Positions 30,355 to 30,669 of a DNA stretch of 36,999 nt are shown here, in pieces (position 1 is the stretch's first letter; each line of letters begins with the position of its first letter). Where the stretch lies: IMG/VR virus record IMGVR_UViG_2874920711_000003; one strand, given 5' to 3'. The notes beneath the pieces are model-generated. The model did no database searches. It worked only from the letters and a program-made list of their open reading frames with translations, and was not told where the DNA came from. Position numbers and translations under genes: made by a program. This stretch comes from a virus (Duplodnaviria; Heunggongvirae; Uroviricota; Caudoviricetes).

Positions 30355-30669
30355 CTAACAACCCGTAATCGAGTTATCAGAACTGTTAATTTTTATGGTA
30401 TACCGCGCCTCTGAACAGGGGCGCGTTTGTGGCAACAGCTCGTCCCCTTCACATAACCCGGCAGCAACATCCAGGAAGACCTGTCTGATGCTCCTTCTGG
30501 CTGCTGCCTCATAAAACTCCAGCGCGGCACCTTCAACACGGTCCAGCGAGATGTCCAGGCCAAAAATTTCACCGTCAAAGCGTTTTTTGTCCCGTAACGC
30601 TAAAGTTACCGTAACTTTATTCTCAAAATTGCGGATCCCTTTCACAATCAGTTCATATTTTTGAGTCAT
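30355..30669 (-). CDS. hypothetical protein between holin and endolysin (YdfR-like, as recalled from the K-12 Qin prophage)
   Basis: Intact 104-aa ORF; its ATG lies 5 nt after the holin stop. No recognisable catalytic or membrane motif. Confidence 0.6.
   Translation of the reverse strand: MTQKYELIVKGIRNFENKVTVTLALRDKKRFDGEIFGLDISLDRVEGAALEFYEAAARRSIRQVFLDVAAGLCEGDELLPQTRPCSEARYTIKINSSDNSITGC

Follow-up and report, generated by a model that had tools for sequence, protein, structure and literature searches.

What is an additional gene doing between the pinholin and the endolysin of a lambdoid lysis cassette? The question is raised by a 36,999-nucleotide stretch of viral DNA (Caudoviricetes; IMG/VR record IMGVR_UViG_2874920711_000003; hereafter the window, meaning the whole stretch, to which all coordinates refer unless a locus is named). 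It carries at 30355..30669, on the minus strand like every other window feature for which we give coordinates, an intact open reading frame (ORF) of 104 codons with an ATG start and a TAG stop. A first-pass annotation made from the letters alone had singled out this ORF as an extra gene lodged between a pinholin and a signal-anchor-release (SAR) endolysin, and had taken its position to suggest a role in the timing or control of lysis. Here we assign the gene to the YdfR/DUF1327 family, delimit its conserved part, and weigh the explanations for its presence. Our preferred reading, to which we give a probability of about 0.4, is that it encodes a small soluble cytoplasmic accessory protein of lambdoid prophages, coupled to the pinholin, whose core binds a host factor or RNA and which is not a component of the lysis machinery.

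The ORF is no chance reading frame. Its product matches Pfam PF07041 (DUF1327; 'YdfR family protein' at NCBI) over residues 1–96 with an E-value of 9.7e-38 and 128.7 bits against a cutoff of 25, and PHROG 2735 with an E-value of 1.6e-54; several PHROGs are hit, all of unknown function. The identical protein is already deposited at NCBI as 'DUF1327 domain-containing protein', mostly from Shigella (S. dysenteriae and 'MULTISPECIES: Shigella'). YdfR of E. coli K-12 (b1555, from the Qin cryptic prophage; UniProt P76160 as printed in PMC13232886) belongs to the same Pfam family and is 66% identical to the window protein overall, with 58 of 72 residues identical in the core. The first-pass annotation had pointed to a ydfR gene between the Qin holin and lysozyme and had proposed a conserved protein of unknown function; the comparison was accurate, the Qin slot being essQ-ydfR-rrrQ, and the profile search bore out the proposal by leading to a DUF family. 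Neither the family nor the holin-ORF-endolysin (S-orf-R) arrangement is new: K-12 has the gene, Pfam lists it as a DUF, and thousands of genomes carry the annotation.

The gene directly upstream is the pinholin gene S (30674..30889), which encodes a phage-21-type protein of 71 residues matching PF04971 ('Bacteriophage P21 holin S', E = 1.8e-35) and has the dual start MKSMDK, as in phage-21-type holins; a mechanical ORF call runs further upstream, to a GTG at 30946. Relatives of this holin in E. coli are annotated 'class II holin family protein' or essD. Its TAA stop (30676-30674) is separated from the DUF1327 ATG (30669-30667) by a four-nucleotide spacer, TTCA (30670..30673), placing the ATG at the fifth base past the stop as originally noted. 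Within the final holin codons, the sequence reads as a Shine-Dalgarno-like stretch, GGGGAGAG (30677..30684), which we infer to be the ribosome-binding site for whichever gene comes after S. With this site and the short spacer, the TTCA junction is probably the point at which translation passes from the holin to the DUF1327 gene, in agreement with the coupling proposed at the outset. K-12 Qin has the same layout: TAA-TCCA-ATG follows the S21-type essQ, a purine-rich GAGGAGAG ahead of ydfR is the counterpart of GGGGAGAG, and an RrrQ-type lysozyme gene lies downstream. Among 92 loci examined, the four-nucleotide spacing was found in every locus with both genes. Exceptions to the S21-holin context are two distant members in tail-gene clusters and a stand-alone 75-residue gene of Shiga toxin (Stx)-type prophages, all three described below.

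Alignment of 25 diverse members revealed that only residues 1–72 are common to the whole family, with E6, G47, Y53, E54, A57, A69 and L72 invariant; the core signature YELxVKG ... EGxxLEFYEAxA ... L is present in the window protein. In the AlphaFold2 model these residues (codons 1–72; 30454..30669) form a β-β-β-α domain, with antiparallel strands at 5–14, 18–27 and 34–43 and a long helix at 50–73, at predicted local distance difference test (pLDDT) scores of about 85–95. The remainder, codons 73–104 plus the stop (30355..30453; CEGDELLPQTRPCSEARYTIKINSSDNSITGC), is modeled with low confidence (pLDDT about 43–58) and is one of several alternative tails, family members having total lengths of 103, 104, 114–116, 161, 176–183, 206, 268 and 287–333 residues; stand-alone versions of 71–75 residues also exist. 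The K-12 tail diverges from that of the window protein after residue 72, but a Y-[TS]-[IF]-K-I motif is common to both. In the 268–333-residue forms the core is followed by a coiled coil and a conserved C-domain with the consensus ECNRP...GRCMGYLQVAAEIE...PFKK..W..PG.TYLK, for which there is no Pfam match; the idea that the C-domain is a second DUF1327-like repeat was ruled out (hhalign probability 0.1%). These comparisons show that the functional unit is the 72-residue domain and that the window tail belongs to a large set of C-terminal extensions that are interchangeable or truncated.

Measured against distant relatives (K-12, H-19B/BP-4795 and the tail-cluster members), the ratio of nonsynonymous to synonymous substitution rates (dN/dS) of the core is 0.24–0.29, and on sequence comparison the gene is protein-coding and constrained. 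The window protein contains no membrane segment or signal peptide (highest 19-residue hydropathy 0.75; isoelectric point 5.5); with no hydrophobic segment, it is expected to be soluble. We found no significant match to DUF1327 in PDB or BFVD, and matches in Pfam, PHROG and NCBIfam were only to DUF1327 families of unknown function.

Within the family, data on RNase E and RNA exist for the K-12 protein only. YdfR was recovered in a bacterial two-hybrid screen and gave two-hybrid signals with Rne(1-597) (PMC13232886, RNA Biol 2026). Rne(1-598) co-eluted with Strep-YdfR, and DNase-resistant nucleic acid (RNA) co-purified with YdfR (PMC13232886). The interaction surface was mapped to residues 1–72, which were sufficient by themselves (PMC13232886), and this segment is exactly the conserved core defined here. 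In uninduced K-12 cells ydfR had almost no RNA-seq reads (PMC13232886), as expected of a late gene. RNase E is the only candidate partner with data. The literature on DUF1327, the YdfR family, essQ/rrrQ, and pinholins with SAR endolysins yielded no functional study beyond this one, apart from the listing of a deletion mutant considered below (PMC3879167).

On our preferred reading, the DUF1327 gene would be expressed from the Q-dependent late operon and would have no promoter of its own; a promoter scan near the gene found no more sites than in shuffled sequence. Ribosomes that finish the pinholin gene would restart four nucleotides downstream by means of the Shine-Dalgarno-like stretch in the final holin codons, and the YdfR-family protein would appear together with the pinholin, in similar amounts. 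Its core would bind the N-terminal catalytic half of RNase E, RNA, or both, the least certain step, which is extended from the K-12 orthologue. Binding would in turn alter RNA processing or decay late in infection, and lysis by the pinholin and the SAR endolysin would go on without the DUF1327 protein.

Several points weigh against this proposal. All the evidence on RNase E and RNA is from one study, which used an overproduced, tagged K-12 protein and whose authors say that a contaminant could explain the RNA; in it, full-length T25-YdfR scored with just one Rne construct (PMC13232886). The surface motif with the strongest conservation, LEFYEA, has an acidic, aromatic character atypical of RNA binding. 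In the sampled lysis-cassette loci, DUF1327 always stands behind a pinholin and ahead of an RrrQ-type endolysin, a pattern that a function in lysis would account for as well. Among close relatives dN/dS rises to 0.5–0.9, indicating weak constraint, at least in cryptic prophages. Finally, no sequence or structural similarity to known RNase E regulators was found. A further phage protein credited with binding to the RNase E N-terminal half is Srd of T4. K-12 YdfR was reported to contact Rne(1-597/598), as RapZ does (PMC13232886), but RapZ and T4 Srd are both unrelated to YdfR in sequence and fold, and ydfR overexpression barely changed the transcriptome, with few transcripts affected (PMC13232886).

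The relaxed constraint among close relatives is also what a decaying remnant would display, in which case the 104-residue form would have been cut down from a longer ancestral protein and would no longer have a function. The window tail matches the linker of the 287-residue forms and then ends, a deletion scar lies in the neighboring region (see below), and the databases contain many frameshifted, truncated or fused variants. Against such decay, no form is commoner among close relatives than the 104-residue one, which is intact in about 66 of the sampled loci and is kept in the plaque-forming phages mEp460 and Perceval. The core is moreover constrained over longer distances, and residues 1–72, which the window protein retains, are enough for the reported interaction (PMC13232886). 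We consider it very unlikely that the gene is a mere relic.

The distribution of the family bears directly on whether it belongs to the lysis machinery. Among 5426 complete E. coli genomes, the S-orf-R-Rz block was present at 80% coverage or more in 1200. The DUF1327 core DNA was found at 8506 places in 4342 genomes (~80%), the S21-type holin at 16904 places in 5166, and the RrrQ-type endolysin at 11112 places in 4428. Comparing 8506 DUF1327 places with 16904 holin places, we conclude that about half of S21-type holin genes have a DUF1327 gene behind them. At 50% clustering the family has 59 representatives among 1.84 billion proteins. In a scan of one genome per species the hits were limited to Escherichia coli, E. 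albertii, E. ruysiae and Shigella, apart from two contigs of metagenome-assembled genomes that are probably mis-binned; a few database proteins are labeled Salmonella enterica. In essence, this is a family of Escherichia and Shigella lambdoid prophages.

The arrangement is not limited to cryptic elements. The order S, four nucleotides, DUF1327, R occurs in phages mEp460 (gp55), Perceval, BP-4795 (ORF47) and H-19B (unannotated) and in many Stx1a and Stx2c phages, and the gene is thus retained in isolated, viable phages (mEp460, Perceval, BP-4795, H-19B and Stx1/Stx2c phages). mEp460 gp55 (96% identity) and its Perceval counterpart (97%) have the 104-residue form and the same 55-nucleotide spacer as the window; the BP-4795, H-19B and Stx-phage proteins differ in having cores that are only ~56% identical and the 114-residue tail type. 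Conservation of the S-orf-R arrangement in related prophages, which the first-pass annotation had named as a check on its proposal, was accordingly observed in E. coli genomes, mEp460, BP-4795, H-19B and Qin.

Cassettes without the gene suggest that lysis does not depend on it. In S21-type cassettes that lack DUF1327, as in DLP12 (essD-rrrD), the endolysin start overlaps the holin stop as TAATG. DLP12 otherwise resembles the window in its pinholin family, its Shine-Dalgarno-bearing C-terminal holin codons, its SAR-type GH24 lysozyme and its Rz/Rz1 genes, but has no gene between S and R, and a purine-rich GAGAGGTGAA precedes rrrD. The two endolysins belong to different lineages: that of DLP12 is of the R21/RrrD lineage and 34% identical to the RrrQ-type enzyme of the window, with the E...D...T region aligned. 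The initial contrast had been drawn with phage 21, in which S and R were said to be adjacent; the comparison made here, with the phage-21-type cassette of DLP12, shows direct adjacency without an extra gene.

The most divergent family members lie outside lysis cassettes altogether. Two proteins, P0159 and P0167, contain the Pfam domain at 39% and 31% identity and are encoded between tail genes, one between gpI-like and gpJ-like genes and the other between gpM-like and gpL-like genes. The tail genes of phi80 match the tail-cluster stretch at ~69% identity, and a gene annotated morF lies inside the matched region. Within lysis cassettes, the window-type core (at least 95% identity) is found behind holins of 75–100% identity, and holin and core alleles therefore reassort. 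The gene is also polymorphic for presence, as S-R cassettes occur both with and without it and its relatives sit at I/J and M/L tail-gene junctions. The family thus shows no obligate pairing with a cognate holin: about half of S21-type holins have no DUF1327 gene, alleles reassort, and members exist outside lysis cassettes.

Taken with the lack of a membrane segment and the reported tie of K-12 YdfR to RNase E and RNA, these findings do not support the role in lysis timing or control that had been read from the gene's position. The evidence leans toward a DUF1327 domain that is not intrinsically part of the lysis machinery, and the picture with the best support is of a mobile gene that lysis can do without. 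An effect on when lysis occurs, exerted either in trans or by displacing the endolysin from the holin ribosome-binding site, is a live but less supported alternative.

A regulator acting in trans would bind the charged C-terminal tail of the pinholin, or the RrrQ-type SAR endolysin before its export, and so set the time of lysis. The invariant four-nucleotide coupling would cause pinholin and DUF1327 protein to be made together, and the two carry opposite charge, the pinholin tail being strongly basic and the full-length DUF1327 protein mildly acidic. Downstream of DUF1327, the lysis-cassette loci sampled all have an RrrQ-type endolysin, and none has the phage-21/RrrD type that overlaps S. The place counts for RrrQ-type endolysin and DUF1327 in E. 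coli are 11112 and 8506, and the K-12 ydfR and rrrQ genes overlap, stop with start, in the sequence ATGA. Because the pinholin position is constant and the endolysin is of the RrrQ lineage in all sampled cases, a link to the RrrQ-type endolysin stays live. One locus, L031, gave an apparent pairing of DUF1327 with a 35%-identical endolysin; it proved to be a rearranged prophage in which the endolysin is fused to a tail fibre.

Small soluble proteins do act on lysis in other phages. T4 RIII is a cytoplasmic antiholin that acts on the holin, and Gp1 of mycobacteriophage Ms6 is chaperone-like for the endolysin, to whose gene Ms6 gp1 is coupled. Unlike these cases, however, the window protein has no detectable sequence or fold similarity to T4 RIII or Ms6 Gp1, nor to any other known antiholin or lysis-timing regulator, a class that includes S21-71, T4 RI and P1 LydB, or to a chaperone in Pfam, PHROG, NCBIfam, PDB or BFVD. 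The S21-type holins that work without DUF1327, the distant members in tail-gene clusters and the reassortment of holin and core alleles also speak against a dedicated lysis regulator, as does the coupled slot in Stx-type prophages, which is taken by a 213-residue gene while the 75-residue DUF1327 has a Shine-Dalgarno sequence of its own. Overexpression of ydfR in K-12 produced no growth defect (PMC13232886). An envelope-permeability screen with chlorophenol red-β-D-galactopyranoside (CPRG) scored the Keio ydfR deletion as a hit (Paradis-Bleau et al. 2014, supplementary tables, PMC3879167), which would fit a lysis function. As ydfR (L004:5055-5366 in K-12 Qin) is immediately followed by rrrQ, the SAR-type lysozyme gene, we suspect instead a polar effect on, or read-through of the kanamycin cassette into, rrrQ. 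Regulation of lysis in trans appears to us unlikely.

Displacement in cis would require nothing of the protein: the inserted ORF would move the SAR endolysin off the holin ribosome-binding site and thereby lower or delay its production. In DLP12, R starts inside the S stop codon and uses GAGAGGTGAA in the last S codons; in the window, by contrast, the Shine-Dalgarno-like site would serve the DUF1327 gene. The window endolysin (29766..30299; 177 residues; PF00959, E = 1.7e-24), an RrrQ-type lysozyme annotated in E. coli as rrrQ or lysozyme, follows a 55-nucleotide spacer (30300..30354). Its N-terminus is Gly/Ala/Ser-rich, as in SAR endolysins, and the enzyme is probably of this type. Its ATG is preceded by ...GCATCCTGATAAATATCC, in which we recognized no Shine-Dalgarno sequence, and does not overlap the gene upstream (29766-30320), so its translation may be weak or reliant on another mechanism. 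Qin differs here, given the ATGA overlap of ydfR and rrrQ. The amount of a SAR endolysin influences spontaneous, holin-independent lysis, and an effect of spacing on the cassette is conceivable. A mere spacer, however, would not keep a 72-residue domain with invariant residues at a dN/dS of ~0.25, would not have homologues between tail genes, and would not fold confidently. No particular spacing is kept either, the distance from DUF1327 stop to endolysin start ranging from -4 to 452 nucleotides across the 92 loci. That the gene matters only as a spacer is, in our view, highly improbable.

The variable interval between DUF1327 and the endolysin brings in another explanation, namely that the protein is cargo unrelated to both lysis and RNase E, serving superinfection exclusion, defence or counter-defence, perhaps together with a convergent small gene or the C-domain. 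Gaps longer than 300 nucleotides between DUF1327 and the endolysin contain a convergent ORF of 79–104 residues. In relatives such ORFs lie, in reverse orientation and in locus coordinates, at L048:3312-3551, L006:4311-4589, L007:4500-4766, L083:2637-2951 and L095:4402-4689 (PHROGs 21218, 2411, 2572 and 1853), and two more follow the tail-cluster DUF1327 genes (L093:4282-4506 and L094:696-1001). Overall these ORFs encode 74–104 residues and fall into PHROGs 21218, 2411, 2572, 1853, 6806 and 25324. Some are faintly alike, and one matches the candidate defence family PDC-S51 weakly (E = 2.5e-5); a selection test on them had too little variation to be informative.

The window itself has lost this element. 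In L048 the gap is 370 nucleotides long and holds a convergent ORF of 79 residues (PHROG 21218). The 55-nucleotide window spacer aligns to the first ~43 nucleotides of this type of gap, which are the 3' end of the convergent ORF, and to the last bases of the endolysin leader, with ~315 nucleotides missing. From this alignment we conclude that the spacer is a deletion scar from which the convergent small gene was removed, leaving its last ~40 nucleotides.

The DUF1327 side of the interval is modular as well. In Stx-type prophages (L095-L097) the order is holin, a 213-residue protein of coiled coil and C-domain, the 75-residue DUF1327 gene with its own Shine-Dalgarno sequence, a convergent ORF of 95 residues, and the endolysin. 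Comparison across L095-L100 identified a fused form in which DUF1327 core and C-domain make up a single 296-residue protein; the split form has the opposite gene order. Such fusion and fission suggests that the two parts work together. The S-R interval is therefore a variable site, holding the core alone, the core fused to coiled coil and C-domain (268–333 residues), or a separate 75-residue gene after the 213-residue gene, with a convergent ORF of 74–104 residues in every architecture with a gap above 300 nucleotides and beside both tail-cluster members.

The window, on the other hand, has neither a convergent ORF nor a C-domain, and PADLOC defence-system models gave no match for DUF1327 or its fused partners. 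A function that benefits the lysogen is unlikely for a gene that has no promoter of its own and whose K-12 counterpart is silent when uninduced, and the base composition of the gene (47% GC against 49–52% for neighboring genes) is not anomalous. The gene resembles a lambdoid moron, an accessory insert transcribed independently, in being present or absent between conserved flanking genes, but the other usual features are missing: it is coupled to the holin, there is no excess of promoter sites, a single weak hairpin is present, and GC does not deviate. That hairpin, terminator-like and followed by CTTTTT, lies at the 3' end of the DUF1327 ORF (30355..30380). It is no better than chance (one site in a consensus scan against 2.5 expected in shuffles, with only four G-C pairs) and is probably without significance. 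Cargo of this kind is, on balance, an improbable explanation for the gene in the window.

We return to the preferred reading, an accessory protein whose core binds a host factor or RNA, to place it in its operon. Downstream of the endolysin lies the Rz spanin gene (29305..29769; PF03245, E = 2.4e-49), whose probable GTG start overlaps the endolysin stop as GTGA, with Rz1 embedded in it (29367-29549; PF06085, E = 6.4e-20). An HNH endonuclease gene and the terminase small subunit gene follow. Upstream of the lysis cassette are the antiterminator Q gene (33463-34185) and, directly downstream of Q, two tRNA genes (33068-33144 and 33244-33319), of which one is Arg-tct and the other, whose anticodon is CAT, was called as Met. 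With Q and the tRNA genes on one side and Rz/Rz1, HNH and terminase on the other, the region is the start of a lambdoid late operon. Even the best complete E. coli genomes are just 97.5–98% identical to the window in DNA over the lysis and head region, and the records of the identical DUF1327 protein are mostly from Shigella; the window is therefore probably a Shigella prophage.

Other features of this region were recorded in passing. Many Stx-type and related prophages likewise have tRNA genes right behind Q. Two ORFs resembling the C-terminal domain of TolA (31141-31535 and 31640-32112; PF06519, E = 1e-14 and 3e-7) lie between Q and the holin, and a lipoprotein-like signal sequence is close to each. 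Neither ORF seems to keep its signal or N-terminal part in frame with the remaining domain, which suggests that both genes are frameshifted. The Rfam small RNA family STnc100 has a strong match (106 bits, E = 4e-23) at 32223-32412, between Q and the lysis genes; the Rfam scan found no RNA family inside or adjoining the DUF1327 ORF. The head genes are HK97-type, and the small terminase, with its HNH gene, is P27-type.

The gene itself is no discovery; its interest is modest and lies in its function and in the modular cargo site between S and R described here. DUF1327 is nevertheless one of the commonest unexplained genes of E. coli prophages: ~80% of complete genomes have it, Stx1 and Stx2c phages carry it, and few phage cassettes have been studied as closely as the one that holds it. 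Three more specific outcomes would each be of note: the core may be a phage effector acting on the catalytic half of RNase E or on RNA and produced alongside the pinholin as late expression begins, it may be the first cytoplasmic timing regulator of a pinholin/SAR-endolysin system, or core, C-domain and convergent ORF may together form modular cargo at fixed S/R, I/J and M/L junctions of lambdoid late operons. We hold it possible, if doubtful, that the gene will prove to be one of these. A protein that tunes pinholin and SAR-endolysin timing would add a new class of regulator to the phage-21 model of lysis. The RNase E reading, if true, would reveal a so far unrecognized link between the lysis cassette and host RNA decay, and if the link to RNase E or RNA holds during real induction, temperate coliphages would adjust host RNA decay as they commit to lysis.

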